A stretch of DNA of 53,390 nucleotides, the filler included, from Jimgerdemannia flammicorona (Eukaryota): NCBI GenBank assembly GCA_003990765.1. It is 2 parts of 2 records of this genome, joined end to end, with 100 filler letters (N's around TTAATTAATTAA, not from the genome) between each part and the next. Parts side by side here need not be neighbours in the genome. Positions count along the whole stretch, not along the records: positions 1 to 26,646 come from RBNJ01000708.1; 1 more part is not named here. One strand, given 5' to 3'. Below the pieces are notes generated by a model that saw only the letters and a program-made list of their open reading frames with translations, did not search any database and was not told where the DNA came from. Below are positions 1,804-44,305 of the stretch, one piece after another. The translations under genes and the position numbers were made by a program. Position 1 is the first letter of the stretch. Every line of letters starts with the position of its first letter.

Positions 1804-1899
1804 AGGAGCACGCGAGACCGAAGAGGGACTAGGTGATAATTTGAAGTTATATCAGTTATGTAATACACTCGCTTGTATTGATAGAATATCTTTCTATAT

Positions 1900-2905
1900 C
1901 TTGTATATTGAGTATTTTAGTTAATAGAATGATGTGTTTGTATATGTGAAATATAGTTTATTGGTATATTGTAATAGGTGATTTGAATTAGGAATAAGAA
2001 TTGAGGATGGATATTTATAAAAGAAAGTTATAAAAATTTATATAAATATTCTCAGTTTTTAGAGTGAATAATTTCAAGTTAATAGTCTTCTGATAGTCTA
2101 ATAATGGGATTAGATATATGTTATAAGGAGTTAAATACTATTAACTCTGAGAATTAAGTATTTAAGATATAAAGAAATTTACTATATATTGCAGATTATA
2201 TATCTACTAAGTTATAATAATAGTTTATTAATATTTCTAGTTTTTATATTATTAGTAATAAATATATTATATAAGTAAATAATATTACAAATAATAAAGA
2301 AAAGTTATCTTATAACTTTATTAATCAATTAAATATTTGAATTTTACTATTTTTGAATTTTTGGTTTTTTTAAAAAAAAAAAAATTATAAGAGTATATAT
2401 AATAATATACTTTTAATATTTATATATTAATATTAAATGATTATTTTATATAATATAAATATTATATTAAAATTATTATAAAAAATATATATTGATTAGT
2501 AAAGAATTTATAAAAATATAATTAGTAGTAATTAATTATAGTTTATTTATACTAATATTAATTTAAATATATATATATATATAATTATAATTATTTATAT
2601 AAAATAAATATAGATAAGATTATAATCTCATCAGTGATGATAAATATATCATAACTAGTTATATAAAAATCTTTATAACTTACAATAGTATTTAGTAAAC
2701 CTTCACTATACTAAAAAAAAGAAGATCAATACTATAACACTCAGTATTCAACTTTGCTAAAATAAGTAGAGATAAATCTTTTTATTTATTTTAAAATTAT
2801 TATTTATATAATAAAAAAATAATAAAGAAGATGCTAAGCTAATCAAAGTAACTACTTCCTTAATTTAAAATAGCTTTGAGCCATAAAGCTGAGTTTAGCT
2901 CAAAG
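1900..2905 (-). mobile_element. Extremely AT-rich relic; its right part is the 5' end of another family A element (A0)
   Basis: 2805-2905 aligns by eye with 8311-8420 (tataataaaaaaataataaa...taatcaaagtaact...ctgagt(t/c)tagc) and 2630-2750 with 8050-8160. The remainder is unassignable. Confidence 0.55.
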
Positions 2906-3282
2906 GGGAAATTATTTAAGAAAGATATATCAAAAGTAATAAACAGTAAAGACTCTTGAGATGAGAAAAGCAAAAAGAGGTCAACAAAGTAAACAACTAG
3001 TTAAGAAGAACAAAACAAAGACCAGAGAGGTGACCACCCTATAGACAGGCTGGATAAAACCATTATGTCATGACCATATAGATAATAATTACAAAAAACA
3101 AGAGAAAGAGAAGCTAAGATAGAATACACAAACATCCAGTACTAACTATAGGAACAATATTGATACCCAAACTCCAAATAACTAACATGAGACATATAAC
3201 TCAATGCACTCTCAATAATAAGGAAACCAACCAGAGCGAATGTATAGAAAGAAGAAAGTAAAGAAAATGTATGATCACTCAA

Positions 3283-6200
3283 TCACTCAACCATCTTTGT
3301 AATCTTAGTCAGACAGAATCTGACTATAAGGTGGCCACCAGAATTATATATAGTATTGATAGTATAGTAGGCTGTCTTGTAAAAAGTATGAAGAGAGTAG
3401 ACATAAAGTTCCTCCTGCCATTCATCACTGGTAAACCAATTGAGCTGTTCATCATAATTAGAATTACCTTGAAAGATAGAATAGAAATTATTGAGAAGAC
3501 CATATCTGAGGAGATATTCATGATAAAACTTATCTCTACAAGAGCAGGAGTAGGGTTGGCCAAAGTAGCCATAATACCAGGTGAGTGCAGAGTACATAAG
3601 CTGGGGGGGGGGAAGGAGAGGACATAATCAGTACCCTAGGACCATAAACTGTCTTTGAGAGTAATATACTAAATGAGAGCCTGGGAGGAGGAGGACTATT
3701 TCTAAAGTAGTTGGTCCTGAAGAAACAATTAGAGAAAGGAATAGAGCAGACAAGTCTTATAGATATAAAAATGAAGGTCCCAGTATGAGTTAAGGAAGTC
3801 AAGCCAAGAGGTCCAATACTGGAACTTATCAATAATAGAATCCAGAAGATGCATGACAAAGTACTTGCTAAGGAGACTGATAGAGTTATTGCCAGACTTA
3901 CTATATCAATCCAGATGGGTTTGTAATATGCAGCAGAGGTCTAATATTTGATAAAGGAAAGAAGAAAGGCCAAGAATTGAACTACCAAGTAGGGAATGGC
4001 TGAAAAAACTAACTGTCTAAGCAATAGTGTCATCAAAGACCTGCTCAGAATACTTCAACATCTGTAGCCTCATAGTAGTAGTTAGACAAGAAGCTTATAG
4101 AAGAAAAGGCTATATTTCAGCTGTAGTCTAATAAAGATATATAGATATATACAATGGCAAACTTGAATATTACAAACTAGAGAGGACCATGGATATGATA
4201 GAATCCAAGAGTTCATTCCACCTTTACCAGATTTTGCAATATCAGACTGACAAAGTCAAACTCTTTGTTAGTATATGGCACACCCAGATATATATAGGAG
4301 GGGAGTCACAGATAAAACTCTCCCACAATCTGCACAGCACAGTCAGCAGGGCCAACATAACCACACTTCTTAGGATTGAGTTCTATACTATTCACTGAGA
4401 GTCAATCCTTATAGAAATCAATCATCCTATATTCTTCTATAGTAGTGCAGGGAGTGAGGACAATATCATCAGTAAAGAAAAGCCTAAGGAAGAAGTCATA
4501 CTCCTTAAACTGCTCATCAAAGAAGGCAGTGAGTAAGTCAATGAATACATCAAAGAGCCAGGAAGAGAGGAGAGAGCCCTGGAAGAGACTGTGTTCAGTG
4601 GGGACTAATGGAGTGACCAGGTAATTAACAATCACCTAATAGGAGCAGTGATTGAATAGGCTTCAGATAATGCTAAGGAGGGTCTAGTGCTCCCAAACAA
4701 GTCGAATCAATTCGAATAGAATCGAATTGAGGGTTAAATGAGTTGAATTGAATTGGGGATTTTACAATTCGAATCAATTTGAATCGAATCAAATTGAGGG
4801 TCTGATTTGAACCCTAATTTTCAAAATGCGATAACCCAGCGTAAACTCATCCGAATCTAACGTACTTTAGCTTGTTAGATTCACATTAATATGGTGAATC
4901 TAACAAGCTAAAATACGTTAAATTAGGATGGGTATTCATCGAGTTATTACATTTTGAAAATTAAGGTTTGAATCGAACTTCAAATCAAATTGGACCTTTG
5001 ATTCAATTCAAATCAAATCGAATTGGACCCTTGATTCAATCGAATCAAATCAAGTTTGGGCCAAATTCAATTCAATTCAATTCATTGGGAGCACTAGGAG
5101 GGTCACATTGGCTTCTCATTCCTCAAGTTGAGAGAGAATAAGCTTAAGGAGGACTCTATCATAAGCCTGCTGAAGATCAAGAAAGACACAATGGTCCTAC
5201 CCCTTAGTGTATATCTCATGTGAGAGCAAGACATGGGAGAGGGATGAGAAGTGGGTTCAGATGCCATCTTGGTAGTGTGACATTTCTGTCAGACTACTTC
5301 AGCTCTTAATAATGTCTTCCAAATATTTCTCAAAGCATCTATGAAATATCTCAGTAAGAGTGATAGGGTGAAACCCATAAATTGTTCTAGATTTCTCCTT
5401 TTTGGGAACTAGAATAATGATAGTAGAGTTCTAGTTATAGAGAGTGAGCCTCCAAATCATATATATCTAGAAGAAAAAGGACAAGGCTTTCAACAGACTA
5501 TAGGGAGCATCCTTCTCATCTACTATCACTCAAAGAATCTAGACATGTAAGGAGTTAGCCCCACAGACCTTTATGAGGGGGTAGCTGTAGATTTCCCTCC
5601 AAACTGTAGGTTAGTCAAACCAAGACTGCAGTCCAAGAGTACTTATATCAAGAGAGAAGACATTCTCAGAGTCATCAAGGCAGAGAGAGGTGTTCAGTTA
5701 GTTGAAGATTGTAGTAAAATAAGCAATCACATTATTAAACATCAGAACAGTAGAAGAGTGAGATTGAAGGAGAGCAGAAGAGGTGGAGCAGTATGCTCAC
5801 TTAAACCATTGATGGTATCAGAGACCAAAGATATACTGAGAAGAAGGTTCTGCTAGGAGAGTGGTATTGCTTTGATTTCTCTTACATATATCATATAAGC
5901 CCAGAATATTCACACAGACAAACTATAGACCAGAGGTCAAAAGGGAGTCAAGAGAGTTTATGAACTGCTAATGATCTTCCAAAGATTGAAAGTCAATGAT
6001 GTGGTCTCAAACAGAGTAAATGGACCTGATAATAATATCACAAATAATATCTACTGATTCCCAAAGATGAGCTTGAATGACCAGATCAGTCAGATATTTC
6101 GCAGAGTAGTAGTAAACATCAGCTAAAGCAGCAACTAGTGAAAAAGAGAAGGAAAAGAAGATGGTAAGGAGGGAAGAGTAGTTGGTGACAATAGCGGGGG

Positions 6201-6749
6201 TGGTATAAGTAAGAGATATATAGAGAGATGCAGTGGTAAATATATAATTAACATGTATAGATCCAGTCACTGGAGTCAGGTGGTTTAATGACCATATCAT
6301 CAAGGAGGTATTGATGATATCTATCCAATCTCAGAGACTAGAATTGATATCACCAAGTCAAGCACTAAAGTATATATTGATGTCACCAATCATGAGAAAG
6401 AGATCAGACATAAGATCATAGAAATCACCAATGGGAAGAGAGGGGGGGGCATAAACCCCAATCAAAACCAAGCTCTAAAATATGAGCTAGATATAGAAGG
6501 GGTCAGTGGAGGACTCAGAAATAAGTGGGGTGAAACAATTTGATATAAGGACTATGAGGCCACCATTCTGGTGATCCACCATCCTGTGTGATATCAGGGA
6601 GAAGATATGTGAATAAGTGGAGAGAGATATAGCAGAATATACTATATTTCACATATGAAAAAAATCTTGAGAGCAGGATCAATCAACTGACTGAGCACAT
6701 AAAACTTGTTCTGAGTTAGTCCATGTATATTGAGGAATCTGACTCTCAT
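3283..6749 (-). pseudogene. A1 ORF2: APE endonuclease, reverse transcriptase and C-terminal Cys/His knuckle
   Basis: Starts MRVRFLNIHGL...FFICE (APE motif I), then GVYAPP and MIGDIN. RT motifs LFQGSLLSSWLFDVFID and LFFTDD. C-terminus CSCxDKFxHxxLLxx. Many stops. Confidence 0.8.
4685..5096. mobile_element. Non-autonomous hAT-type MITE (412 bp) inserted in A1 RT
   Basis: TIRs TAGTGCTCCCAA / TTGGGAGCACTA; 8-bp TSD GGAGGGTC at 4677-4684 and 5097-5104; subterminal AATCG/AATTC pentamers. Confidence 0.9.
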
Positions 6750-6759
6750 TGGAGGCTGG

Positions 6760-7920
6760 ATATGTTAGTATCAATAGCATAAGAAGCACTTAAAAAGAAA
6801 GCCTTGGCTTCTAAATCCATTGCTATCTCTTAGTTATAGCCACAGTACCACCTACCTTTGAAGTAGAGCCAGCCATCAGTGGGGCAAGAGAGGAGAGAGT
6901 GATGCTAAGTTTCATGATCTATGTCTTATAGAAGGTCTGCACCTCAAGTCTCTTTGCAGTGGCATTATCAGCCAACTGCCAGACTTAGGAATGGAAGAAT
7001 TAGAGTATCTATACTTTTACAGCTTCTGTGGTGTTCTTATTGCAGAGAAGTACAGGGTCCTAGGCTGAGAGAACCAAGAACTCGAGTACCTTTATCTTTT
7101 TTTGGAATTTCATAATATAATCAGAGTATAAGAGAAATTCAATATTAGATGCTGAGATATACAATATATTGAGAATCTTTGACAATATCACATAGACATC
7201 ATATAGGTTCTTTCAGATTTGTCCAATCTTCAGATAGGCAAAGCCATTAATATAAATATGCTATAGCTTAGCATCTCTCTCAGTTGGCAACAAATGAGAG
7301 ATTGACTTGTGGATCATATGAGAGGGTAGTGGCAGCAGTAGCTCCTTCTAGCTCAGGGTAGACCTAGATCCTATCCTTAATAGAAATCTTATTAGCAGTA
7401 GTGATGTATAATTTGGGATAGTAGAGGCTGAAGCAGGGAATGAAGATAGACTAGCAGCACTGGATTCTACAGGTATAATCTGGGGCACTGGCTCAGGGGT
7501 CTTGCCCTTGCTCTTTTTAGAGGGCATGGCTTTGGTAGCTAGAGGTACTGCCATGGGAGTTGCCTCCTTAGGTAGTACACTATACTACAATATAGTGGCT
7601 TTAGTGTCCAACTTGTCTGCTTTCTTCTGGGTCTTTGATTGTGTGTTTGCAGCAGAACTAGTAGGAGTGGGGGCCAAGAACTTGGAGTGGATAGATGGAG
7701 ACTGGCCAGTAGGAGTACTTCCCAAAGAAGCACCAGATAATATAGGAGCAGTAGGTGCTGATTGCTTAGCAAGCTGTACCATGAGCTGAGTATTAATCTT
7801 AGCCAGTTCAGCTACTTGAGTTAGTATATCTAAAATCTGCTTCCTCATTATAGCTATCTCAATGGCCAGATCAGGGATAGCTGAGGGGCTCATATGATCA
7901 ATAGTTGGGGTTATTCCCAA
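6760..7920 (-). pseudogene. A1 ORF1 (coiled-coil N-terminus, Pro/Ser/Lys-rich middle, conserved C-terminal domain); boundaries approximate
   Basis: ORF fragments 7585..7920 and 7348..7554 directly upstream of ORF2; homologous segment at 18505-19440. Confidence 0.6.
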
Positions 7921-8433
7921 ACTAGTATTTAGATGACCATGCTTATTCTAATTGAGAAGCAAAGATATGTGAGAGAAGGATGAGTACTGGGCATCATGGT
8001 TCAAATCTGAAGAGATTGAAATCTCTACATCATCTTCTACATCACATAGAGAAGATAAATACACTAATAGTAATTATACATCTCTGTATAACCTGCATAT
8101 TACTATAAGGCTACTCCAGCTGAAACTGAGGGAGAAAAGACTAATAATATAATATTCAGTACAGCAGAAAGAGGTGTCAAAGTATCGAAAGAGATGAGCA
8201 GTATTGCTATTATTACTGAAAATATAAGAGATAGCTGATATTGCTGGAATAGGTAAAGATATATTTATTTATATTTGTGAAATTGTGAAATATAGATCAC
8301 ATGACCTTTGTTTGTATAATAAAAAAATAATAAATAAGAGGCTTAGTTAATCAAAGTAACTGTTTTTTTTATTATGGAATGGCTTTGGACTGTAAATCTG
8401 AGTCTAGCCAAATGGGTAAATCACATGAGTGGC

Positions 8434-8461
8434 TTAGGTTAGGGTTAGGATTAGGGTTAGG
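8434..8461 (+). repeat. Internal telomeric repeat tract between tandem family A copies
   Basis: TTAGG TTAGGG TTAGGA TTAGGG TTAGG followed directly by CTTCAAGTAAG (family A 3' terminus). Confidence 0.9.
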
Positions 8462-8990
8462 CTTCAAGTAAGAATTTTATTCATTATAGAGAAGATAAGA
8501 TACATCAGAGCTATAAAGGATAAAGACTTCTGAGAGGAGAAAAGCAAAAAGTGGCTAGCAAAGTAAATAACTAATAAAGAAGAGCAAATAAAGACTATAG
8601 AGTTGACCAACCTATGGACGGACTGGATAAAACCATTTTATCACAGTTATAAAGATAATAAATGTGAAAAGTAAGAAAAAGAGAACTAAGATAAATATAC
8701 AAATACTTAGTATTAACTATAGAAATAATATTGACACCCAAACTCCAAATAACTAATATGAGATATATAACTCAATATACTCTTAATAATAAGAGAACAA
8801 ATCAGAGCAAATGAGAGAAAAGAAAAAAGTAAAATAAATATATAATTGTTCAATCACTCAAGTATCTTTATAATCTTGATCAGACAGAACCTGACCACAA
8901 GGTGGTTACTAGAATTACACATAACATCTATAGTATAGTAGACTGTCTTGTGAAGAGTATGGAGATAGTAGATACAAAGTTCCTTCTGCT
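8462..8990 (-). mobile_element. Family A copy A2, 5'-truncated (3' end only, about 530 bp)
   Basis: Matches 9024-9550 and 21314-21845. Confidence 0.85.
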
Positions 8991-9001
8991 ATAGGTATGT
9001 A

Positions 9002-9023
9002 TTAGGTTAGAGTTAGGGTTAGG
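9002..9023 (+). repeat. Internal telomeric repeat tract
   Basis: TTAGG TTAGAG TTAGGG TTAGG followed by CTTCAAGTAAG. Confidence 0.85.
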
Positions 9024-12000
9024 CTTCAAGTAAGGATTTTATTCATTGTAGAAAAGATAAGATATATCAGAGAAATAAATGGTAAAGACTCCTAAGATGA
9101 GAAAAGCAAAAAGAGGCCAGTGAAGTAAACAATGAGCTAAGAAGACAAATAAAGGCCAGAGAGGTGATCATTCTAGAGATAGACTGGTTAAAACCATTTT
9201 GTCACAGCTGTAAAGATAATAAATATAAATCAAAGAAGTGAGAGGATAAGAAATAATATACAAATGCTTGGTACTAACTATAGGAACAATATCAATATCC
9301 AAAAACCAAACAACTAATATGAGATGAATAACTCAATACACTCTCAACAACAAGAGAATCAACTGAGATAAATAAGGAGAAAGAAAGGAATAAAGAAAAT
9401 GTGCAATTGCTCTATCATCTAAGTATCTTCATAATCTTCCTCAGATAGAACCCAACCATAAGGTTGCTACCAGAATTATATATAGTATCAATAGTGTAGT
9501 AGATTATCTCATAAAAAGTATGAAGATGATAGGCTTGAAGTTCTTTCTGCTATTTGTCACTGGTAAACTAGTCAAGCTATTCATCATGATCAGAATTACC
9601 TCAGAAGGCAGAATAGAACTATTGAGAAGACTATATCTGAGGAGATAGTATGATGAAACCTATCTCTATAGGGGCAGGGGCAGGGTTGACCAAAATAGCT
9701 ATAGCACTAGGCAAGGGCAGAATACACAACCTGAAAGAGAAAGAAGAGGATATAGTCAGTGCTATGAGACTGCAAACAATTTTTGGGGGTGATATACTGA
9801 ATGAGCACTTGAGAGGAAAAAGCCCATTCCTGAAACAGCTAGTCCTAGAGAAATAACTGAAGAAAGGAGCAGAGCAAGCAAGTCTTGTGGACCTGAGGAC
9901 AGAGGTCCCAGTACCAGTTAAGGAAGTCAAGCCAAGAGGTCCAATGTTAGAACTTATTAATAATAGAACTCAGGGGATATGTGATAAAGTACTCGCTAAG
10001 AAGACTGATGGGATTGTTGCCAGACTTGCTACACCAATCCAGGTAGGCTTAAAACATGCAGCAAAGGTCTGTCATATGATGAAGAAAGGAAGAGAGGATA
10101 AGAATAGAGCTGCCAAGCAAGAGATGGCCAAAAAATCCAACCACCCAAGTGACAGTGTCATCAAAGATCTGCTCAGGACACTTTAATATCTAAAGCCCCA
10201 TAGTAGTAGCTGAGCAGGAGGCTCATAGAAGAGAAAGGTCATACTCCAGCTGAGACCTAATAAAAGTATGTATAATGGCCAGCTTGATCATTGGTGACCA
10301 GAGAGAACCACAGATATGGCAGAATCCAAGAGTTTGTTCTGCCTTTACCATATTCTGTAATATAAGATTGATAATGTCAAACCCTTTGTTAATATACAGT
10401 ATACCCAGATATACATAGAAGTGGGGCTGCAGGCAGAGCTCACTCCCAATCTGTATAGTACAGTTGGTAGGGCCAACATAACTACACTTATTGTGGTTGA
10501 GTTCCATACCATTCACTAAGAGCCAATCCTCACAGAAGTCAATTATTTTTTGCCCTTCTGTGGCAGTATGCGGGTGAGAGCAATATTATCGGCAAAGAAG
10601 AGTCTAAGGGAGAAGTCATACTTCTTAAACTATTCATTGAAGAAGGTGGTAAGGAGGTTAATGAAAACATCAAAGAGCCAAGAAGAGAGAAGAGAGCCTT
10701 AGAAGAGGCCATACTCAGTTGGGACTGAAAGGGTGATGAGACTATTAACAATCACCTAATAGGAACAGTGATTGAACAGACTTCAGTTAATACTAAGGAG
10801 AACTGCATCAGAACCCCATGCCTTAAGTTAGAAAAAAATGAGCTTGAGGTGGACTCTGTCATATGTTTGCTGGAGATTGAGAAAGACATGGCAGTCCCAC
10901 TCCTTAGTCCACATCTTGTGTAAAAGCAAGATAAAAGAAAGGAATGAGAAGCAGGTTCAGAAGCCATCTTGGCTATGCAACATTTCTGTCAGGCTGCTTC
11001 AGCTCTTGACATATCCTTCCAAACACTACTTGAAGAGCCTATGAAACATTTTAGTAAGAGTGATAGAGCAAAATCTATCAATTATCTAAGATTTCTCCTT
11101 CTTGGGAACTGGGGTGATAATGGTGGAGTTCCAGTAGTAGAGAGTGAGCCCACAGACCATACATATCTGGAAGAAGAACAACAAGGCTTTTAACAGGCTA
11201 CAGGGAGCATCCTTCTCACCTGCCATCACCTGAAGGATCTGGACATATAAGGAGTCAGCCCCACAGGCCTTTGAGAGGGGGTAGCTATGGATAGCCCTCC
11301 AAACCACAGGTTAGTCAAACCAAGACTACAGCCCAAGGGCCTGCACATCAAGGAGAAAGATATCCTCAGAGTCATCAAGATGAAGGGAGATATCTGATTA
11401 CTCAAAGATAGTGGTAAAATAAGCAACCATATTGTTGAAGACCGAGATAGCAGTGGAGTGAGATTGAAGTAGAGTAGGGGGGGGTGGAGTAGTATACTTA
11501 CTTAAAACCGTAAATAGTATCAGAGACCAAAGATGTACTATAAAGTAGGTCCTGCTGAGAGAGTGATGCTACTCTGATTTCTCTTACATCATATGAGCCA
11601 AGAATGTCCTTACATACTAACTATAGACCAGAGGTCAAAAGAGTATTGAGAGAATTTACAAATTTTTGGTGATCTTCCATAGAGTAAAAGCTGGTAATAT
11701 AGTCTTAAAAAAAGTAGATAGACCATACAACAATATTGCAAATGATATCCACCAATTCCCAAAGGTGGACTTGAATGACCAGATCAGTTAGGTATTTTGC
11801 AGAGTAATGTTGAATACCAGCCAAGGCAGTAACTGATAAGGAGGAGAAGGGAAAAGAGACATGAGGAGGAAGGAGTTATTGGTGGTGACAAGGTAAGTAG
11901 TGTATGTGAGAGATGTATGAAAGGATGTGGTAGTCAATGTGTATAGATCCAGCCATCAGGGTTAGGTAGTACAATGGCCAAGTTATCAAGGAGGTATCAA

Positions 12001-12603
12001 TGGTATCTATCCCATCTATAGGACTAGAGTTGACAATACTAAGAGAGGTACCAAAGCAGGTATTGATGTCAACAATCAAAAGGACCTTACCCAGAAAGGG
12101 ACCAGAAATAAGATTATGGAAATTACTAATGAGAAGAGAGAGATAGATGTAAACCCCAACCAATACTAAGCTCTGAAATATAAGCTAGATATGGAAGGGG
12201 TCAGTAGAGGACCCAGAAATGAGAGAAGCAAAACAGTTTGATATGAGGACTATGAGACCACCATTCTGGTGACCCATAATATACAGAATTGTGAAAAAGT
12301 GGAGAGGAATATAGTAGAATGTGCTATGTTTCATATATAAAAAGAACATCAAGGATAAGACCAATCAACTAACTGAGTTAATTGAACTTGTTCTTAGTTA
12401 GTCTATATATATTGAGAAACCTGACTCTCATTGTGGGCTAGATACATTAGAATCAACAGCATGGAAAGTACCTGAGGAGGAAGCTTCGGCTTTTAGATCT
12501 ATCACTATTTCTATAGTCATGGCCATAGTACTATCTACCTTTGAAGCAGAGCTGGCCACTGGGGGAGCTACGGAGGAGAGGGTGAGGCTGAGTTCCATGG
12601 CCA

Positions 12604-12608
<5 letters not shown>

Positions 12609-12645
<37 letters not shown>

Positions 12646-15600
12646 GTTACTTGGACTCTTCCTTTATTACATATATCTATCCCATATAAGTACAGTGAAC
12701 CCACCTCCTATCCAATCCCCCTAGGGGGGCCCCTCCTACCTACCCCTTCTCGACGAAACCCTACTCTATTGAACACAATCCCCACTCTCCCACCACTCTG
12801 TTCACATATCCTCACCACCAAACTGTGCCATCGCCACCCTGAAGGACCCCAACCCATCTACCATCTAGTCATCAGATTCCTAAATAGCTCCTCCCACCTT
12901 AAAACCTTCTTCTGCAGTCTCATCTGCTGCTCTTCCTCAAACACAAATAGCCAATATCCCGCCAATCTCACCCAAACTGCTAACACCCACCCAACAGTGA
13001 GCCAACTATTACATACAAGCCGAGATCGCAAGTCCTCCCAGCAATCCCCCTCACCTTCCGGCCTATGCATCACATCTAGTTTATTCCCTATTTCAACCCA
13101 AAAGTCCCCCAAAACCTCACACTCTCCCAGCCAATATTCCAGCATCTGCACCAGACCCCCAGCTTGCCCTATATTGTAACACTCCTCACAATTGAAACAG
13201 CCTCCATCTACCAGATACCCAGTGTAGAAATTCAGAATGATATTCCTCCACAGCATTCACCACCACACCACCCAGAACTTGGAGGAAAGCCACTGCTATA
13301 CCTCAGCACTCCAAGACCAGATATCTGCCCAGTCCCACTACTGGCCAATCCCAACTGCCTGCCAACTACTCAGTCAAAGATCCTGGCCAAGACCCTGCTG
13401 ACACTCTACTCTGTTCCTGATATCAAAGGTAGCAAGTAGAGCACCTCCCAGTAGCAGCCTATCCCACTGCTATATACTAGATCCCCACAACACCTCCCCC
13501 TCATTGCCCTGCCAGTGTAGACCAATCCTGTGCACTCCATCAACCACTTCCCACCAAAAGCCCTTAAACTGCAGCCTTTGAATTCCATTGAGCCCAATCA
13601 AAGAGAGTAGATTACCAGAGGACCCTCAGGGGAAGGTTCTCATCTCCCACACCTTCTGCAGCAGAGGCACCCAACTCCCTCCTTATAGTTCAGCTGCTCT
13701 CTTCAACCACCAGGCCTACAAGTAGTGTAACCTCTTAGGGAAATCCCCAAGGCCAAGACCTCCCCTGACCACCAGTATTGCAAGAGTATTCCAACTGATC
13801 TGGGACCTCCTTCCTGCCTAAATCCAATCCCTAGCCACCTTCGTCAGCCTCTTCACTACCCAAGCTGGAAAGTCTAGGTGGTAGGCTACATACTACAGCT
13901 TGGAGAATCAGTATAAATTCAGAATTGATACCTGCCCTGCTAGAGAGATATGGTGGCCTCTCCAACCTCGAAGAGCCTCTATCCAAACAGCCACCCTGGT
14001 CTCCCACCACACAAGTGTCAAGACAGAGCCATATATAGAGAGGAAGATGCCCAGATACCATACCATCTCACCAGTAGGGACAATTGTTCCAATGATGTCC
14101 CCACCCACCAGTTCATTTCTGAGCACCATAGTCTCATACTTATACCTATTGAGCTTCATCCCAGAGTGATCCTCATACCATTCCACTATCTTCCTAAGTG
14201 CCTCAACATCTATTACAGACCTAAGGCCAACCATCATATCATCTGCAAAGGCTCCCACCTTCTATGCTATGTCATAGATAGAGAGCCCTACCACCTTCTG
14301 GCGAATCCTATCCATCAATGGCTACAATGAGAGAGTATAAAGAATAGGGGACAGGAGGTCCACCTGAGAAACCCCTCTCTTCAAGGTAAATACCAGACCA
14401 TGGTGAGCATTACATATCAGCACTGCCCGACTGCCCTCTAGCAGATTCAATATAGAAGCCCAAAATCCTGAAGGTACACCAGTATGATTCAATATCTTGC
14501 TCAGCCAAACCTGCTGGACCCAGTCATAGGCCTTATCCTGGTCCAAGAAGATCAATCTTCCATCCAGGCCACAAGTCTGGGCCCCTTCAATGATACTATG
14601 TACCCATGCAGTCTCATCTCTTATAAGTCTGCCTCTAACAAAGCCCCGCTGCTCCTCCCCTAGCATCTGTTGGGCAACCTTCTGCAGCCTCACAACAACC
14701 ACCTTAGTCACCATCTTCCTGTCTATGTCCAAAAGCGTGATCAGTTGTCAGTTCTTCCAGTCTTCTCTCCTCCCCTTGTCTTTGTACAATAAAGCCACCA
14801 GCCCAAGGTCCTACTCTCCAACCCACTTACCACTCTGAAGAACATGATCACAGAGAGCAGTCATTTCACCCAAAATGCCAGGGACTCTAACCATCTTCTT
14901 CCAGAAGTCTCATGGTAGTCCATCCTCTCCTGATGCTGTTTCAGTTTTAGTTGCTGCAAGGACACTCTGGACCTCCTCACCATGTACCAGCAAGACTAAG
15001 TCATCCAGTCCAGCCACTTGTAGCAGCCTTCATTCCTCTAATGTATCTTCAATAGCTGCCTCATTAGCACCCCCTTCTTCCTTACTCCACAAACCCTGCT
15101 ATCTCTCTTTCAAAACTTCTAAGATTTGTTACATACCATATATCATATCTCCATCAACATCTAGGACTCAATCTCACTGATATCACACCCTCTTAGCTTT
15201 CAGCAGATGGGATAAATATCTAGTAGGCCTCTCACTCTCTTCAAGCCCCTGTTACCTTAGCCTAGCAGCCATACCTCACATATACACCTCCTTCTCTTCT
15301 CTCAACACCTGTTGCAATTCTATAATCTCCAATTTAATTCACGTTAACCTCTAATCCTCTACCCAATCACAAGTAAGAAGACCTGCCCAATCCATTTGCA
15401 ATCTCCTCAACCTGTTGGAAGTACACCTTATATGCTCCCTCCTCTGCCTCCCAGCTTCTCTCCCAGCCCCTTCCTAATAGATCCTCGCAGCCTCTTTCAA
15501 TCTCATCCAATAGACACCCAGACAAACCCTCACACCTCCAGCAAGCAACTTTGGCCTGAATGTCCTCTATCCATGAATTCCACAACCCCTTCTCAGCCAG

Positions 15601-18495
15601 CAGAGAGAAGTTAAGGCACCAATGTCCAGGTCCATCTCCACTCTCACCAAACTGCCCCTGTCCCAACAGTCCCCAGTAATCAGACCATGGGCACTATTCA
15701 ACCTCTAATACCTTCCAGACATCAGACCCCCAGCATTCTGCCATCAGAATCCAGTCAATCCTTATACCTAAGCCATTCACCCAATGTGTATAGACCCTGG
15801 AATTGCCCCATCATGTTCAGCCCATATCCCCTAAGGAGCTCAGCTGCTCCATCTCCTCCCATATATCCAGGCCTACACTTCACCCTCCTACACTCCTCCT
15901 ACCATCAGTGTGGTCTAGATGCTGATCCCAAACCATATTAAAGTCCCCCCCAAGCACATCAACCCCTTCTGCCAAGAGAATACCCTCCTCCAGCAGCTCC
16001 TTAATCCATACAATCCTCTCACCCCTAACTGCAGGACAGTAGCAGGAGCTAACCCTCACCAACTCCCACTCCAGTCAATGCCAATCTCCCAAGACCAAGT
16101 GATCACCCCAGCTTCCAATACCCCCCAAGTATCCTCTACCCTTCCTCACTAGAATTGCCACTTTTCCAAACCAAGCAGTAGCCCCACCCCATTCCCTAGT
16201 CCACTCAACCTGATTATCCTTATAGTTACACTAAATATTCTACAGTAAAAATAGATTGGCCTCCAATCCCCTGAGCCAAATAAAAATATTCCTACACTGC
16301 TCAGATCCCCTGAGCCCATTCACATTCAAAGAGAAAATGTTGTTTGTACTGTTCAAAAGAGAAAAAGTTGTATCATGAACCCACTCTCTACAATTCTACA
16401 TCCTGCTCCTTCTGCAACATATCCAAGTCATAATCAGCAGCTAGTTTCCTTTCACCAGCTTTCTGTACCTCCAACCCTCCCAGAAGTTCAACCATTGCCC
16501 CATCTTCTCACTCCTCAAAGTCCTTATGATATTTGAGACAGACTTCCTGCCAGAACTGCAAACCATGTCACTCCACCCAACAGTATGCCGCCTACTCACC
16601 AGCAACCACTGCCAGCTTGGCCTTCCTCACCTCATCAACCTCATATCCCTCCCTCTCTAGGAAAATCGAAAGAATCTCCCCCTTCAGTACCTCCACCACT
16701 CCCTCACCACTCAAAATCTATATTCAATGCTCTTCAGGCATTACCTGCAGGTCCACTTCTCCCAAAGTCTCAGCCACAAGGTTATCCATCACCTTGCTCA
16801 TTCACAGCAAGTTTCCCACCTCCTTCCCTCTCAGAGTCTCAGGCCATCCTATGTCCAATATTGTGGTGTCAGCCCCAATACTGGCAGCCTCATTCCACTC
16901 CTCTTCAGAGATATCCACCAGCTCATCCTTGCTAACCACCACTACCTGACCCACTTTTCCCACATCAGAGACCCCAAAGTGTACTTGCTGGGCCACCTTC
17001 ATTAGTATATCCTCCATTGTCCATCTCTTTCCAGCTGAGCCCCTCTTGATAAGAGAGGGTGGAGTTGTATCCACTTCGGCTCCCAGACCTTGAAAGTGCC
17101 GTCAGCAAAGGGGTTCTTGCTCAGCACTCTTGCAGCCCCTTCCTTGCCTGCCTCTACCTCTCCAATTCCTTTACTTGCCCAAATACTAGCTTCGATACCT
17201 CCAGATTCTTTGGCTCCCACTGCCTTCTACTTCACCTCTACTTTCATACTCGCAAGTAGCTCTCTCTGCCTCCTGCACCCCTGTACTCACTCCCACTACT
17301 TTCTGTCAGTATGGATGTATTTCCCATCTACAACCTCCAGATGTGTCGACTCCTCATACATCTTCCAGGCCCTTGCCCTTTCTCCATAGCTCCACTTATC
17401 TCCTCCAGTGCCTTCAACAAGGCTTCCTCCTCCTCCTCACTCCCCTTCACCCTCAACATCTTATAGATGAACACCCCCCACATCAGCACAGAAGGCCAGT
17501 TACTTATCTTCCCTGTGGCCTCCTTGTCTGCCAGCCGAATCCTGACATCAACATCACCCATCCTGATCATTGTCCCCTCTCACACCTGAAAGCTGATGTC
17601 CACTATATCACCATACTCAATCATCACCCCCTCCACTCTCTTCCTAGTCTCCTTCTTAGTCACCATGGGCACCCTCTTCATCAGAAGCTGCACCACTCTG
17701 GGGTCCTATCATAAGCACTGCACCATGGGGATCACCACTTCCCCAACTATGACTCCAGTCTTCAGTACCTCATCCAGTGGACCTGCCTCATCAAAGCCCA
17801 CCTCGACCCCCTCCAGACCCTTCAAGAACTTCACTGAGGCTGCCCCAACCACCTGCTTCAAAACAAGCCCCAGAACTATCCTCGCTGTCACCACTAAGAC
17901 CTAAAAGTACAAGGTAACCATAAACTCCAAGATTGACTTCTTGAGCAATAGGGTCACCACGTGCCCCATTACACTATCTGCCAGGTCCCCCTTCTACATT
18001 GGAAATCCCTGCCCCACCTGGCCATCAGCTATCACATCTCTTTTTTTTTCCTGATTTCCCATCACACTCCTATCAACAGTCACACCCCCAGCTACAGCAC
18101 CTCCAGCCCCTACTCCAGCACTCCCAGCCAGAGTACCACCCCCCTCCCAAGGCTTGCCTTGCCCTTCCCCTCAGCAACACCATTCAAAGCACCAGCTGGC
18201 CACCCACTCTCCTTCACCTTGTCTGCAAAGCTTGGGAGATCAGATCTTCTACTATTATCACTGGACATCAGTCCTCCTCCAGAGCCTTCACTACTCTTAG
18301 GCCATCTGAAGGCCCCCATCCCCAGGCAATAACCCCTCCCCACCTGCTACTAGTCAAAGGCCCTAGGTCCACCCAACCTAGTATGTGTACTTATGTATTT
18401 ATTGCTTTCTATATTGCTAGTTACCTTTCACCAAAAATGTCATCAAAAGTGTTGTCTGAGTCTTGTGTCATCTGAATGTTACCAGTGAAAGATGT
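12609..18495 (-). mobile_element. Family B L1/Tx1-like LINE copy B1, full length about 5.9 kb, with poly(A) tail
   Basis: T34 at 12609-12642; 5' end shared with other B copies; degenerate 17-bp TSD at 12594-12610 and 18505-18521 (14/17 identical). Confidence 0.9.
12820..16355 (-). pseudogene. B1 ORF2 (APE endonuclease and RT); boundaries approximate
   Basis: FSLNVNGL, GGDFN, GHWCLNxSLL, EQRGFVRGRLI, DQDKAYDWV, GVSQxDxLSPILY, AFADDM, YLGIF. Confidence 0.85.
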
Positions 18496-19451
18496 TTTGA
18501 CCTATCTATGGCCCATGTCTTGTAGAAGGTCTGTATCTCTGGTCTCTTAGCAGTGGTTTCACCAGCCAACTGCTAGACCTGAGTATGGAAAGTTTGGAGT
18601 ACCCATGCTTTCACAGCCTCTATGGTGTTCTTGTTGCAGAGGAGTACAGAATTCCAGACCATCAGTATTGAGAATCCAAGCACCTTTATCTTCTTCTGGA
18701 ATGCTAAATCATAATTAGGACAGAGAAGAAATTTTATAGTTGAAGCTGAGACATACAACATATTGAGAATCTTTGACAATATCATATAGATATTATATGG
18801 GTTCTTCTGGATCTGCCTGATCTTCAGATGGGCAAATCTGTCAATATAAATATGTTACAGCCAAGTGCCTCTTTCAGTTAGTGACAAATAAGAGATCAAC
18901 TTATGAATCATATGTGAAAGAGTAGAGTGGCAGTGGTTCTTTCTATCTTAGAGTAGGTCTAGGTCCTATCTTTGATAAAAACCTTCTTGGTAGTAGCAGC
19001 ATATGATTTGAGAGTGGTGGAGTTGAAGCAGGAGACAAAGATAGACTGGCAGTACTAGGTCCCAGAGGGATAGTCTGGGGTATGACCAGGGGCCTTGGCT
19101 TTGCCCTTTTTAGGTGGTGTGGCTTTAGTGGCTGGGGCACTGCTGTGGGAGTTTCCTTCTTTAGCGGCACACCAGACTGCTATGTAGCAGCTTTAGCAGC
19201 CTGCTTGTCCACTCACTTCTGGGCCTTCGACTGCATATTTGCAGCAGATCTAGTAAGAGGGGGGCCTGAGGATTTCGGGGGAGCAGATATGGAAGGGGTG
19301 GCAGAGATACTACTCAAAAGAGTACCAGATGATAAGGGAGCTGTGGGCACTATCTATGTAGCAAGCTGTACTATTAGCTGAGCATTGATCTTGGTCAGTT
19401 CAGTTACTTGAGATAGTAGATCTGAGATCTGCTTTCTTATTCACTAATATG

Positions 19452-21313
19452 ACTCCTTTCTCCTATACAATTCATATTATACCAACTTCAAGTAATAGTT
19501 TTCAACACAACTTAGAGAAAAGGTATTATAAAAATATCATTGAGCAAGCATTCTGACAGATATGCTGAGTTGAGTAGATCTGGAGCTTTCTGCTAGCAGA
19601 ATGCAGGAAGGGGTTATGGCTTATAAATGGGGACCTTTGGAGAGTTGAAGGGTAGTGAGGGCTCTGGAGATAAACCAGTGTCTGGCAGCAATGGAGGAAG
19701 GTCTGGTCCCCTAAGCTTTGTAGATAAGATGAAGGAGAGTGGGTGGCCTGCTAGATTTAGGGCTGGTACTGCTGAAGAGAAGGGTAAGGTGAGCCTAAAG
19801 AAGGGGGAAGATACTCAGGTGAGGGAGGTGAGTATAGATGCTGGAGGTGCTGTGGCTGGGAGTTGGACTACTGATAGAAGTATTGCAGGAAATCAAGAAA
19901 ACAAAAGAGATGTAATAGCTGATAGCAGAGTGAGGCAGGGGTTTCTGATGTGCAAGAGTAATCTGACTGATGGTGTAACAGAGCTGGCAGTAGCACTAAT
20001 ACTCAGGAAATTGATCTTGGAGTTTGCAATAATACTATGCTTTCAAGGCTTAGTAGTGATGGCAAGAATGATCTTGGGGCTTATCTTGAAACAGATGGCT
20101 GAGGCTGCCTCAGTGAAGTTTCTAAAAGGTCTGGAGGGGATTGAGATAGACTTTGAGGAGGCAGGCCTAATGGAAGAGACTCTGAAGATTAGAGTGGTAA
20201 TTGAGAAGATAGTGGTCTCCATGGTGCACTATCTGAGGTTGGACTCCAGGGTGGTACAGCTACTAGTGAAGAGGGTATATTCAGTGATGAAAGAGGAGAC
20301 TAGGAGGAGGGTGGAGGAGGTGATGGCGAAGTATAGTAATGTGATGGATGTCAGTTTCCAGATATGGGAGGGAACCTTCAATAGGATAGGTAATATAGAT
20401 GTGAGGATTAGACTGATTAAAAGAGAGGCTACAGGGAAGGTGAGCAACTGACCCTCAGTATTGATATAAAAGGCTTATCTATAAGATATTAAGGGTGAGA
20501 GGGAGTAAAGAGGAAGAAGAAGACTTATTTGAGGCTCTGGAGGAGTTGGGTAGTGCTGTTAAGAGGGAGGCAAAGACCTGGAAATTATATAAAAGGTCAA
20601 AATATCTGGAGATTATTGATGAGAAGTATATTCATACTGATAAAAGATAGTTAGATAGGGCCCAAGAATAAAGGAGGTAGAGGGAGTTACTAGTGAGCAT
20701 AAAAGGAGGGGTTAAGATGATGACTGGGGGCTCTGTGAAGTCTGGGGGAGTGGTGGCGAGTGACTGGGCTAGCCAAAGAGGAGGTGATAGGTAGAAGGAC
20801 CTGGAAGGAGCTGAGAAGGCACTGCTCAAGAATCTGTTTACTGATGGTACTTTCAAGTTCTGGGACCTAGTTGTGGATGATACTTTCTCTCTTTTTTTTT
20901 TTTATAGTCCTGATACTTTCTCTCTGATCAGAAGAGGTCTAGCTATAAGAAGTTGGGCAGCAGAGGATGAGCTGATGTGAGGTGCTCAGAGTGACCATTG
21001 GTGAGGATGAGCTAGTGGATATCCCTAAGGAGAGATGAGATGAGACTGCTAGTTTAGGGGTTGATATTATAATGCTGGATATAGAAAGACCAAAGATACC
21101 AGGAGGAAAAAAAGTAGGGAACCTGCTATAGATGAGCAAGATGATGGATAACTTTATAGCTGAGGAGTTGGGGAAAGTAAAATTACAAGTGATGAGAGAG
21201 AATTATTATAGAGATTCTTATGATTTTTCTGGAGAAAAAGAGCTATAAGATTGATAAGGAGAGAGAGGCAGAGCTTGGAGTTATTGCTAGTAAGCAGACT
21301 GCCTACTGTTGGG
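19452..21313 (+). mobile_element. Family B copy B2, 5' part (ORF1 only), 3'-truncated and joined to A4
   Basis: ORF 19627..20451 is homologous to B3 ORF1; ends at GCCTACTGTTGGG. Confidence 0.8.
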
Positions 21314-23495
21314 CTTCAAGTAAGAATTTATTCATTGTAGAGAAGACAAGGTATATCGGAGCAATAAAAGACAAAGACTCCTAAGATGAAAAAAGCAAAA
21401 CAAGGCCAGTGAAGTAAAACAACTAGCAAGGAAGAACAAAACAAAGGCCAGAGAGGTGACCACCCTATGGATGGGCTGGATAAAACCATTTTGTCATGGC
21501 TGTAAAGATAATAAATGCAAAAAGCAAAGAAAAGAAAGGCTAAGATATAATACACATTTGCCCGGCACCAACTACAGGAACCGTATCGACAACTAAACAC
21601 CAAACGACTGATATGAGATGAATAACTCAATGCGCTCTCAACAGCGGGGGGAACCAACCAGGCAAATGAGGGGAAAGAAAGAAGTAAAGAAAATGTACAA
21701 CTGTTCGGTCACTCAAGCATCTTTGTAATCTCGGTCAGGCAGAACCTGACCATGAGGTGGCCACCAGAATTACACATAGCATCTATAGCATGGTAGGCTG
21801 TCTCGTGAAGAGTGTGAAGAGGGTAGGTGCAAAGTTCCTCCTGCCATTTGTCATTGGTAATTCAATCAAGCTGTTCATCATGATCGGAAGAATCTTGGAA
21901 AGCAGAATTCAAACTGTCGAGAAGACTGCACCTGAGGAGATGGCCATGATGAAACTTATCTCAACAGAGGCAGGGGCAGGGCTGGCCAAAGTTGCTATAG
22001 TGCCAGACAAGGGCAGAATGTACAAGCTGGGGGGGGAAGGAGAGGACACAATCAGCTCTCTGTGACCACAAGTAGCCTTTGGGGGTGATGTACAGAATGA
22101 GAGCCTGGGAGGAGGAGTCCTATTCCTGCAACAGTTGATCCCAAAGGAAGAACTGGAGGAAGAAGCAGAGTGAGCGAGTCTTGTGGACCTGGGGACAAAG
22201 GTCCCAGTACCAGTCAAGGAAGTCAAGCCAAGAGGTCCAATACCAGAACTTGTCAATGATAGAACCTGGGGGACATATGATAAAGTGCTCACTAAGGGGG
22301 CCGATGGAGTTGTTGCCGGACTTGTAACACCAATCCAGATGGGCTTGAAACATGCAGCAGAGGTCAGACGTATGATGAAGGCAGGAGGGGAGGCCGAGAA
22401 TCGAACTGCCAAGCAAGGGATGGCTGGAAAATCCAACTGCCCAAGTGACAGCGTCATCAAAGACCTGCTTGGGACACTTCAACACCTGAAGCCCCATGGT
22501 AGTAGCCAGACAGGAAGCTTGTAAAAGGGGGAGGCCATACTCTAGCTGAGGTCTAATAAAAGTTTGTACGATGGCCAGCTTGACTATTGGCAACCAGAGG
22601 AGACCATGGGTATGGCAGAACCCAAGAGTTCGTTCTGCCTTCGCTACATTCTGCAATGCCAGGCTGACAAAGTCAAACCCTTTATTGGTGTACGGCATAC
22701 CCAGATACATGTAGGAGAGGGGTCATGGGCAGGATTCACCTCCAATCAGCACAGTACAGTCAGCAGGGCCAACATAATCACACTTCTTGGGGTTGAGCTC
22801 CATGCCATTCACCCAAAGCCAATCCTCGCAGAAGTCGACCATCCTCTGCTCTTCCACAGCAGTGCGGGGGTGAGGGTAATGTCATTAGCAAAGAAGAGCC
22901 TGAGAGAAAAGTTGTACTCCTTGAACTGTTCATCAAAGGAGGCAGCGAGGGGATCGATAAAGACATCAAACAGTAAAGGGGAGAGGAGAGAGCCCTGGAA
23001 AAGGCCATGCACAGTGGAGACCGAAGGAGTGATAAGGCCATTGACAACCACTTGATAAGAACAGTAGTTGAACAGGCTTTGGATAATGCTAAGGAGGGCC
23101 GCATTGGTACCTCGCACCTCAAGGTGAGAAAGAATGCACTTGAGGGGGACTCGATCATACACCTGCCGGAGGTCAAGAAAGACGTGGTGGCCCCAACCCT
23201 TAGCCCATGTCTCGTGCGATAACAAGACATGAGAAAGGGATGAGAAGCGGGTTCGGAAGCCACCTTAGCAGCACAAAATTCCTCAGGCCACTTCGGCTCT
23301 TGACATAACCTTCCAAACACTGCTCAAAGACTCTATGAAACATTTCAGTCAGAGCAATAGGGCGAAATCCATCAATTGTTCGCAATTCCTCCTTCTTTGG
23401 GACTAGAGTGATGATGGCTGAGTTTCAGCAGCAGGGAGTGAGCCCCCAGACCATGCACATCTAGAAGAAGAATGAGAGGGCCTTCAAAAGGCATC
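21314..23495 (-). mobile_element. Family A copy A4, least decayed; 3' UTR, CCHC and RT, cut by B3
   Basis: DGFRPIALTE, FLDLRQVYDRVP, GLFQGSLLSPLLFDVFID, LFFANDI, YLGMPY, CPCLCxDKFHHGHLLRC; many CpGs retained. Confidence 0.9.
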
Positions 23496-23578
23496 GCACC
23501 TTTCGCTGGTAACATTCAGGTTACACAACCCTTTGACAACACTTTCGACACAGTTTCTGGAGAAATGCTACTAGTATC

Positions 23579-25609: not shown

Positions 25610-25639
25610 GGATTGATCGGGAACAAACCGTATTTTATT

Positions 25640-26542
25640 ATGAACAGTACAACCAACATTTTTTCTTTGAACGTAAATGGGCTTAGGGGTGCAGCTAGAT
25701 GCAAGAACATTTTTCTTTGGTTGAAGGGATTGGAGGCTGATCTCTTCCTCTTGCAGGATGTCAGGTACGAGAATGATGCTGATAGGATGGAATGGACTAT
25801 GGAATGGGGTGGCATGGCAATTTGGAACAGCAAGGTTGGGATTCTGGTTCGGAAAGGCAGAGGGGAGATAAAGGATGTGAGGAGCTGGGGGGAGAGACTG
25901 GTCTGGGGTGAGTGGATTCGAGCAGGTTGGGAGCCGGTCACAGTTGGCTCCTGTTACTGCCCTGCGGTGCGGGAGGAGCGTGTGGATTGGGTGAAAGAGC
26001 TACTGGAGAGTAGGATCCTTGCTGAAGCTGGGTTAGATATGCTTGGAGGAGATTTAAATATGGTTCGGGATGTACAACTGGACAGAACTGATGGAGGATG
26101 GGGTGCAGAGAGCAGGAGTGGGGGTTAGTGATGTGGAAGGAGATTGAAAGGCTAGGAGCATTGGTGGATGTTAGTAGGGAGCACTGGGGGGACAGGAGAG
26201 TATATATGCATTGGGCTGGAGGTCTGGGGACAAGGATTGACTGGATTCTGATGGCCGACTGTTGGGGCCACGATGTCTGGAAGGTGTTAGAGGTTGAATG
26301 GTGTTCGTGGTCAGATCACTGGGGTCTCTTGGGACAGGGGTCTTTTGGGGGAAGTAGAGATGGGTCTGGATATTGGTGCCTGAATTCCTCCTTGTTGGAT
26401 GATGAGGCCCGGTGGGAGGAGTGGGCAAAAGACATTCAGCTGAAGGTGGTGAATTGGTGGCAGGAAGGGGCAGTGATTGGGGTTCGGTGGATGAGGATGA
26501 AAGAGATGGCCAGGATGTATTGGAGTGACGTTGGGAGAGAGG
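25640..26542 (+). pseudogene. B3 ORF2 N-terminal APE endonuclease (one frameshift near 26120), truncated
   Basis: MNSTTNIFSLNVNGL, LLQDV, CYCP, GGDLN, TRIDWIL, SDH, YWCLNSSLL. Confidence 0.9.
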
Positions 26543-26646
26543 TTAGGGTTAGGGTTAGGGTTAGGGTTAGGGTTAGGGTTAGGGTTAGGGTTAGGGTTAG
26601 GGTTAGGGTTAGGGTTAGGGTTAGGGTTAGGGTTAGGGTTAGGGTT
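26543..26646 (+). repeat. Telomere (TTAGGG)17, G-strand pointing to the contig end
   Basis: Perfect hexamer array running into the N gap. Confidence 0.95.
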
Positions 26647-26746
26647 NNNNNNNNNNNNNNNNNNNNNNNNNNNNNNNNNNNNNNNNNNNNTTAATTAATT
26701 AANNNNNNNNNNNNNNNNNNNNNNNNNNNNNNNNNNNNNNNNNNNN
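26647..26746. other. Artificial contig spacer (44 N + TTAATTAATTAA + 44 N)
   Basis: Symmetric 100-nt N pad with an all-frame stop linker. Confidence 0.95.
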
Positions 26747-34135: not shown

Positions 34136-34159
34136 GTCAGATATATGATGAATATAATA

Positions 34160-44266: not shown

Positions 44267-44280
44267 TCAGCCCCCACTGA
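44267..44280 (-). promoter_or_regulatory. G2 polypurine tract
   Basis: Minus strand reads AGTGGGGGCTGA immediately before the 3' LTR TG. Confidence 0.6.
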
Positions 44281-44305
44281 AGGGTAGTCTGTCCCAGACT
44301 ATTCT

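Follow-up and report, generated by a model that had tools for sequence, protein, structure and literature searches.

Can a long interspersed nuclear element (LINE) that carries an apurinic/apyrimidinic endonuclease (APE) be addressed to telomeres in a fungus, and by what route would its copies reach the chromosome end? The question is raised by a window of 53,390 nucleotides of Jimgerdemannia flammicorona (assembly GCA_003990765.1), the whole stretch of DNA analysed here, in which decayed copies of a retrotransposon without long terminal repeats (non-LTR), here named family A, lie among telomere-like tracts towards one end of contig RBNJ01000708.1. The window is made up of two contigs, the first occupying positions 1-26,646, and N runs at 26647-26690 and 26703-26746 flank a ttaattaattaa spacer between them. 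Family A is probably a decayed member of an L1-like clade which bears a C-strand telomere tract in place of poly(A) and primes on TTAGGG 3' ends.

Contig 1 terminates in perfect TTAGGG repeats, (TTAGGG)17, which identifies the plus strand as the G strand and places the chromosome end on the right. With at most one mismatch allowed, TTAGGGTTAGGG has 21 matches in the window against 0.48 expected, 16 of which fall in the terminal array and five at 8439-8462 and 9007-9024. The preliminary description of this locus had recognised a head-to-tail array of family A copies or relics, all on the minus strand with their 5' ends facing the telomere, and this holds for four of the four copies delimited here (Table 1), A3 being split in two by B1, a member of a separate LINE family (family B). 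No family A sequence was detected to the right of 23495 by self-BLAST of the whole window, contig 2 included, and the sole contig 2 match to the A1 region is a miniature inverted-repeat transposable element (MITE) located inside A1.

The copies share a 3' terminus, as had been proposed, with CTTCAAGTAAG occurring exactly at 8462, 9024 and 21314, where the ends of the homologous copies align. The count of this motif is not significant alone (four matches with up to one mismatch against 1.9 expected, 10 of 100 shuffles reaching four), and the fourth match, CTTCAAGTAAT at 19486, is taken as chance; it was considered as a further A end and rejected, as its alignments to the 3' end of A, the 5' region of A1 and the 5' end of B do not rise above those of shuffles. 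TTAGG(G) tracts are indeed present at 8434-8461 (CTTAGG TTAGGG TTAGGA TTAGGG TTAGG) and 9002-9023 (TTAGG TTAGAG TTAGGG TTAGG) in the form of degenerate units, four to five of which adjoin two of the three intact A 3' ends, where the joint reads ...TTAGG followed directly by CTTCAAG. The reported absence of poly(A) is confirmed by alignment of the ends: in the sense direction the copies finish with ...CTTGAAG and then pass into telomere units, the complete ending being ...AATAAA-ATTCTTACTTGAAG with a gap of 14 nt between AATAAA and the tract. A1 is deleted for its last ~45 nt and any tract that followed.

The tracts measure 29, about 22 and 0-6 nt in the respective copies and, as their length varies, they are not a fixed encoded end. 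The preliminary description had counted three telomere-joined 3' ends, of which those at 8434-8461 and 9002-9023 stand. The third, the telomere-like GTTGGG at 21308-21313, cannot be read as a relic of telomerase, as the corresponding position is occupied by TACTGTTGGA, TACTGTTGGG and TATTGCTGGG in three other copies of family B. GTTGGG is thus family B sequence and A4 is joined directly to B, at a telomere-like hexamer that can form five Watson-Crick pairs and one G.U pair with CCUAAC (hand count).

Downstream of the A2 tract lies the 5' region of A1, the first 110 nt of which recur past the A1 3' end. This module aligns with 8308-8421 at 78% identity over 114 nt by BLAST, and in a transition-tolerant local alignment it scores 79 against a shuffle maximum of 21, the homology ending at 2800. 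Judged by this alignment, it is probably the 5' end of one more A copy (A0), no other part of which is recognisable. The adjacent AT-rich block was also considered as a degenerate A copy and was set aside, as the transition-tolerant alignment returns only the 110-nt module and nothing past 2800.

An array of this appearance might also be formed by an ordinary dispersed LINE whose tail happens to be a telomere-like microsatellite, comparable with the (TAA)n or (CA)n tails of other elements, with the copies having piled up, nested and been segmentally duplicated in a subtelomere that is poor in genes and tolerates them. Subtelomeres gather transposons, and the window contains family B LINEs as well as a MITE and Gypsy elements; segmental duplication could also explain the 110-nt module and the A 3' end being found twice. 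We consider this account improbable, as the four copies are all co-oriented and joined end to end via tracts without intervening unique DNA, as the tract length varies, and as the A4 joint has no tract save the GTTGGG of family B itself. A2 is 80% identical to A1 and 78% identical to A3 or A4 and is not nearer to A1, so that recent duplication is not indicated.

As first described, family A is of the non-LTR type and encodes an APE, placed N-terminally, and a reverse transcriptase (RT). A1 comprises a 5' untranslated region (UTR), open reading frame (ORF) 1 at about 8130-6889, and ORF2 with its APE at about 6760-6100 and its RT at about 5600-4240. The motifs FLNIHGL, FICE and GDIN, by which the endonuclease had been recognised, occur in reading frames of A1 and align with the APE of intact relatives. 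The RT fragment of A4 matches Pfam RVT_1 and, in an exhaustive search, retrieves proteins of ~1000 aa at 45-52% identity. RVT_1 was found by Pfam in 10 of 10 relatives and an N-terminal Exo_endo_phos domain in four of the 10. In an alignment of 14 intact relatives, the APE catalytic residues N11, E37, D130, N132 and H206 are invariant or nearly so, and the C-terminal motif CX2CX7HX3C (C925/C928/H936/C940) is conserved.

A profile of these 14 relatives finds human L1 ORF2p over its APE and RT domains (E 1e-45) and matches the L1 endonuclease (6.5e-8), and the endonucleases of TRAS1 and R1Bm are unmatched by it at E up to 10. The AlphaFold model of one relative (pLDDT 84) has L1 ORF2p as its best Foldseek match (E 8e-30, 1168 columns), a result that is biased, since the only full-length LINE proteins in the PDB are L1 and R2; the RT of the relatives is nearest to these same two. 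The modelled APE superposes alike on the L1 endonuclease (TM 0.63) and the TRAS1 endonuclease 1wdu (TM 0.64), and APE folds alone, as modelled, do not discriminate L1 from TRAS1. By its profile and fold matches to PDB entries, A is classified as an APE LINE of L1-like type. An R1/TRAS-like affinity is not borne out, as the profile finds the L1 endonuclease and neither TRAS1 nor R1Bm, and as A is without poly(A). No restriction-like endonuclease (REL) domain was found in A, the C-terminus of which carries only the CCHC motif, so A is not of the MoTeR/FoTeR/Cnl1 kind; its conserved APE and L1-like RT indicate that it is not of the endonuclease-deficient Penelope type either.

In the relatives, ORF1 has a CxxC...CxxC motif in its N-terminal part, along with a coiled coil; its C-terminal domain of ~120 aa is conserved and is matched by A1 7569-6889 and A3 18902-18513. 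This homology places the start of ORF1 near 8130 and makes 8421 a plausible 5' end of A1. The ORF1 family has no Pfam match, no PDB sequence match beyond coiled coils and no Foldseek match at E <=0.001; its model (pLDDT 64) has a confident domain at 400-530, and the RRM-like rows in the Foldseek output are weak (E 0.04-0.09). The CxxC...CxxC motif is a candidate DNA-binding part for target choice. The motif is zinc-ribbon-like and common to the ORF1 of L006, L009, L012, L014, L015, L027 and L031 among the metagenome loci described below, and L027 ORF1 gives a weak match to Zn_ribbon_InsA (E 3e-4), which is below the cut-off.

Scanning of the ORF2 alignment against metagenome contigs identified 80 loci, 30 of which have a match reaching the ORF2 C-terminus. 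On the sense strand after ORF2, 19 of these 30 contain a C-strand tract of the (CCCTAA)2-5 kind of at least 10 nt, located 65-870 nt past the match (a weak 8-nt regex match in L002 was discounted), and four others (L002, L013, L015 and L025) have shorter or degenerate tracts by eye. Poly(A) is found in three of the 30, and in the remaining four, one of which has just 114 nt of flank, a tail of either sort was unseen. C-strand tracts downstream of the match are present in none of the 50 loci whose match stops before the ORF2 C-terminus. Among the 30 highest-ranked loci scanned, the motifs number 25 on the C strand and 0 on the G strand. The tract starts 10-16 nt past AATAAA in 18 of the 19 tailed loci, a range that includes the 14 nt of A, and in nine of them it starts in the phase CCTAAC, like that of A. 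Deviant tails, namely (CCTAA)3 in L026 (3244-3258) and CCTAAACCCTAA or CCCTAAA in L005 (3410-3421) and L022 (2732-2743), were also noted; such motifs may track different host telomere repeats.

In an RT tree of 81 rows (two dropped for short coverage; quick IQ-TREE search with support from the Shimodaira-Hasegawa-like approximate likelihood ratio test, SH-aLRT, only), three A copies form one group (100) within a 50-row clade (99) that holds every tailed element. Its 31-row sister group is without tailed elements. No tail, poly(A) or short tandem repeat was seen when 3' ends were sought in a 17-row subclade of the 50 (L028, L047 and others), the copies of which look degenerate.

Head-to-tail junctions were identified in four loci (L014, L015, L024 and L005). 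At the start of L014, one copy's 3' end and its tract directly adjoin the 5' end of a second copy; this second copy has its own tract, followed by a 30-nt mini-copy with a tract of its own and then by the 5' region again. L015 opens in the same manner, with a 3' end, a tract and the next copy's 5' end; L024, a tandem unit, has a 5'-truncated copy after its tract, and in L005 the 86 nt past the tract derive from the interior of that element itself. The same design as in A is thus directly seen in relatives. For a dispersed LINE with a microsatellite tail, these independent joints in four unrelated loci and a tail that is a telomere repeat in 19 loci, always of the C strand, would be hard to accommodate; speaking for it are the shortness of the tracts and the flank after the tract, which is short and not recognisably element in 15 of the 19 tailed loci, where the insertions may be dispersed ones.

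The anatomy, orientation, joints and domains of A are likewise direct observations. From them we infer an RNA 3' end, a pairing step, a nick with its position and an order of events. The element RNA would end ~14 nt past AAUAAA, at or just inside the CCUAAC tract, and this tract would pair with a G-strand 3' end, ...TTAGG-3'OH. The RT would then extend ...TTAGG-3'OH, so that the antisense strand of the element continues the G strand, and the resulting copy would have its 3' end centromere-ward and its 5' end toward the chromosome end. The primer would most likely be produced by the APE that the element itself encodes, through nicks in duplex TTAGGG of the telomere or of an older copy's tail, and natural or broken ends may also prime. 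Repeated rounds would build up a subtelomeric array of head-to-tail copies whose joints hold 1-5 telomere units. Priming of the cDNA on TTAGG-3'OH had already been proposed; the joining of the A 3' end to G-strand TTAGG, likewise found in the relatives, upholds the structural half of that proposal, and the priming itself is our reading of this joint. The variable tract length, the A4 copy without a telomerase tract and the GTTGGG/CCUAAC pairing suggest that the target supplies the repeats at least in part and that pairing of CCUAAC with the primer sets the start point.

The nick is the step at which another account differs. A may prime only on natural G-overhangs or broken ends, like HeT-A/TART and the endonuclease-free Coprina/Athena, with the array recording successive healings between which telomerase added a few repeats. 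In keeping with this, A4 directly adjoins a truncated B copy where the latter ends in a G-rich hexamer resembling the telomere repeat, the terminal B copy records a break and healing of this end, the youngest-looking copy is nearest to the end, and 5' UTR tandem repeats with CCCTAA-like cores (L001, L006 and L010) could seed capping. We nevertheless regard end addition without a nick as unlikely, as the APE catalytic residues are invariant in the 14 intact relatives, which argues that nicking is needed and, by analogy with TRAS, that nicks in duplex TTAGGG normally supply the primer. The decay gradient is also non-monotonic, A2 being more decayed than A1. Since everything distal to 26542 has been lost, nicking and end healing are indistinguishable for A4, and an internal insertion of A4 into an intact B would look the same as healing.

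Family B is a separate LINE with poly(A), APE and RT, represented by the three copies of Table 1 and by a fourth at 27206-32725. The poly(A) of B1 is the T run at 12610-12643, its target-site duplication is ~14 nt long (12596-12609 / 18507-18520), and the sense strand of the family is very rich in G (2064 G vs 788 C in B1). Three B copies are located in or against A copies, and the two on the plus strand end at G-rich sites, one at A4 and one at the telomere. The terminal TTAGGG array begins within ORF2 of the latter, after ...GGGAGAGAGG, where the other B copies continue, this copy being cut between its APE and RT regions. The array therefore looks like de novo telomere addition on a broken end, and a telomere seeded inside a B copy implies that the contig 1 end was broken and healed at least once. 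Broken ends were hence also available at this end, as seen from the joint of A4 with B and from the healed terminal B copy.

For the joint of A4 with B at 23495, a template switch from A RNA to B RNA was rejected on account of the wrong orientation, B being in sense from its own 5' end; an insertion of B into A4 followed by terminal loss is simpler. The order of events at this end may have been that A copies piled up head to tail and B LINEs then entered the AT-rich A copies, insertion into A being certain for B1 and probable for the other two. The end would have been lost twice within plus-oriented B copies, at G-rich sites, and rescued once by A4 and once by telomerase.

The differences between A copies are 84-85% transitions, mainly C>T and G>A. 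The stop codons in the tblastn matches number six in A4, 12 in A3 and 23 in A1, and A4 (GC 48%, with indices of repeat-induced point mutation (RIP) type at background) is both the least decayed copy and the one nearest to the end. Decay is intermediate in A1 and A3 and strongest in A2 and the AT-rich block; this gradient matches a distal-is-younger order only loosely. The C>T and G>A changes of the A copies (1830-12610 and 21314-23495) lie mostly at CpA/TpG, and the RIP-type indices climb from background in A4 to strong in A2 and the 15% GC block (1830-2800). To our knowledge, RIP is not established in Mucoromycota.

Several observations weigh against the reading of A as an element that primes on TTAGGG 3' ends. 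Stops are present in all A copies, the array is seen at one chromosome end only, the present telomere is capped onto a family B copy and not an A copy, and the third A joint, that of A4, is without a telomerase-made repeat. The tracts are short, their flanks in most tailed relatives are as described above, and the RT rows of the tree were pieced from tblastn matches and analysed by a quick search with a single type of support. In addition, the AATAAA 10-16 nt upstream of the tract would predict poly(A), none of which is seen in A; in Hebe, poly(A) begins 11 bp past the signal (PMC2861651). The RNA of A might be cleaved within the first telomere units of a read-through transcript, and priming there would leave poly(A) uncopied. 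The earlier suggestion that A co-maintains chromosome ends with telomerase is not sustained, given the stops in every copy and a present telomere seeded inside a truncated B copy.

Elements with comparable habits are known from several lineages. HeT-A/TART/TAHRE of Drosophila (Jockey clade) resemble A in forming head-to-tail arrays with 5' ends toward the chromosome end and are able to heal broken ends; unlike A, they have poly(A) joints, lack telomerase repeats and belong to another clade. Their function in the host is essential. TRAS1/SART1 share with A the APE, residence in telomeric repeats, a fixed orientation and a telomerase that is still present, but are R1-clade elements, found in Bombyx and other insects, with poly(A) tails. 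The orientation of TRAS, with its 3' end against C-strand repeats, is the same as that of A. Zepp carries poly(A). Coprina/Athena form head-to-tail terminal arrays, and their 3' ends carry short reverse-complement telomere repeats, which are thought to pair with G-overhangs; they encode a Penelope-type RT and no endonuclease, whereas the RT of A is L1-like and its APE is conserved.

The fungal telomeric non-LTR elements MoTeR1, FoTeR and Cnl1 all belong to the CRE clade and encode a restriction-like nuclease in the literature searched (PMC12857005), the type of nuclease named for MoTeR at the outset. According to the same text, they resemble A in being located at fungal chromosome ends, without poly(A) and with 5' ends facing the terminus, and FoTeR 3' ends are followed by 3-7 C-strand repeats, the joint design of A and its relatives; the 5' regions of all three contain variable tandem repeats (PMC12857005). 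They differ from A in having one ORF, with RT followed by a C-terminal restriction-like endonuclease, where A has ORF1 and, at the N-terminus of its ORF2, an APE. Tandem repeats, in some cases with cores like CCCTAA, were also observed in the 5' regions of relatives of A (L001 1-240, L006 5749-5860, L010 4483-4710 and L015 930-1150) and call to mind the variable repeats in the 5' regions of MoTeR and FoTeR.

The preliminary description gave insects as the hosts of APE-type telomere specialists, but their range is wider: a 2023 survey, which distributes telomere-inserting LINEs over four clades, CRE, L1-like (Zepp1 and Tx1-1_ACar), R1 (TRAS/SART) and Jockey, places the L1-like elements Zepp1 (Chlorella) and Tx1-1_ACar (anole) beside TRAS/SART (PMC10088271). 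By their description there, Zepp1 and Tx1-1_ACar are like A both in being L1-like and in inserting into telomeric repeats (PMC10088271), and differ from it in that their hosts are from other kingdoms. Grem-LINE1 of Mucorales is also an L1-like LINE of Mucoromycota bound to one chromosome compartment, which is the pericentromere and not the telomere, and it is reportedly absent from Endogonales genomes (bioRxiv 10.1101/706580). In the openly readable literature, Repbase and Dfam not being covered, we found no description of an APE/L1-like LINE with C-strand telomere tails in fungi; an earlier description of such a fungal lineage may exist.

Telomere-homing retrotransposons are the best examples of mobile DNA sharing or taking over a host function, and the fungal cases in the literature searched possess a restriction-like nuclease or none. 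If A belongs among them, telomere homing arose again in the L1 group, which includes the human element, in a lineage spanning an early-diverging fungus and many unnamed relatives. Such a lineage would provide a natural system for studying how APE and the RNA 3' end jointly set target choice, and why a poly(A) signal persists though no poly(A) is copied. Arrays of this sort also explain interstitial telomere tracts and unstable, hard-to-assemble chromosome ends. A wider version, which we advance as a doubtful conjecture, is that the relatives constitute an unnamed, widespread clade of L1-like LINEs whose telomere-complementary 3' end has replaced poly(A) and for which any TTAGGG-like 3' end, whether nicked, natural or broken, would serve as primer; the clade would then repair chromosome ends alongside telomerase, as a second system, in fungi and possibly in further eukaryotes, and the joint of A4 would be a fossil of such healing.

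Table 1. Features of contig 1 from the AT-rich block to the telomere; block boundaries are from self-BLAST and alignment of copy ends.
Feature	Position	Strand	Basis or remark
AT-rich block	1830-2800		15% GC
110-nt module, probable 5' end of further copy A0	2800-2912	-	homologous to 8308-8421
A1, near full-length family A element, decayed	2918-8421	-	tblastn of intact relatives
MITE-like insertion within A1	4684-5097		terminal inverted repeats; self-BLAST
Interstitial telomere tract, A1 5' end / A2 3' end	8434-8461	+	
A2, 5'-truncated relic, last ~530 nt of A	8462-8992	-	
Interstitial telomere tract, truncated A2 5' end / A3 3' end	9002-9023	+	
A3, 3' part (3' UTR, RT, APE)	9024-12609	-	
B1, full-length family B LINE inside A3	12610-18506	-	Pfam RVT_1, self-BLAST
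A3, 5' part (ORF1 region)	18507-19441	-	
118 bases aligning with neither A nor B	19442-19558		
Family B fragment, B positions ~108-1868, ending in its own GTTGGG	19559-21313	+	
A4, 5'-truncated, least decayed A copy	21314-23495	-	Pfam RT match
Family B copy, full 5' end, telomere-cut in ORF2	23497-26542	+	
Terminal (TTAGGG)n array	26543-26646	+	

The last host gene before the array, which is also the sole host gene on contig 1, is located at 23-1711 and encodes a CRN/RHS-like P-loop protein (GTSGIGKS). Among named proteins it is most similar to three from J. flammicorona (90, 79 and 66% identity), then to proteins of Mortierellaceae and Endogone, which makes Endogonales (Mucoromycota) the probable host group and overrides a weaker lead from this gene to Basidiomycota. 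The family has many paralogues in Jimgerdemannia, Linnemannia and Mortierella. On contig 2, ORFs of Gypsy-type retroelements occupy 40243-51818, among which the ORF at 47821-48396 on the minus strand is dUTPase-like by eye. The MITE-like element in A1 is ~413 bp long, with 29-nt terminal inverted repeats and an internal hairpin, and a second copy with 87% identity is located on contig 2 at 33739-34136.

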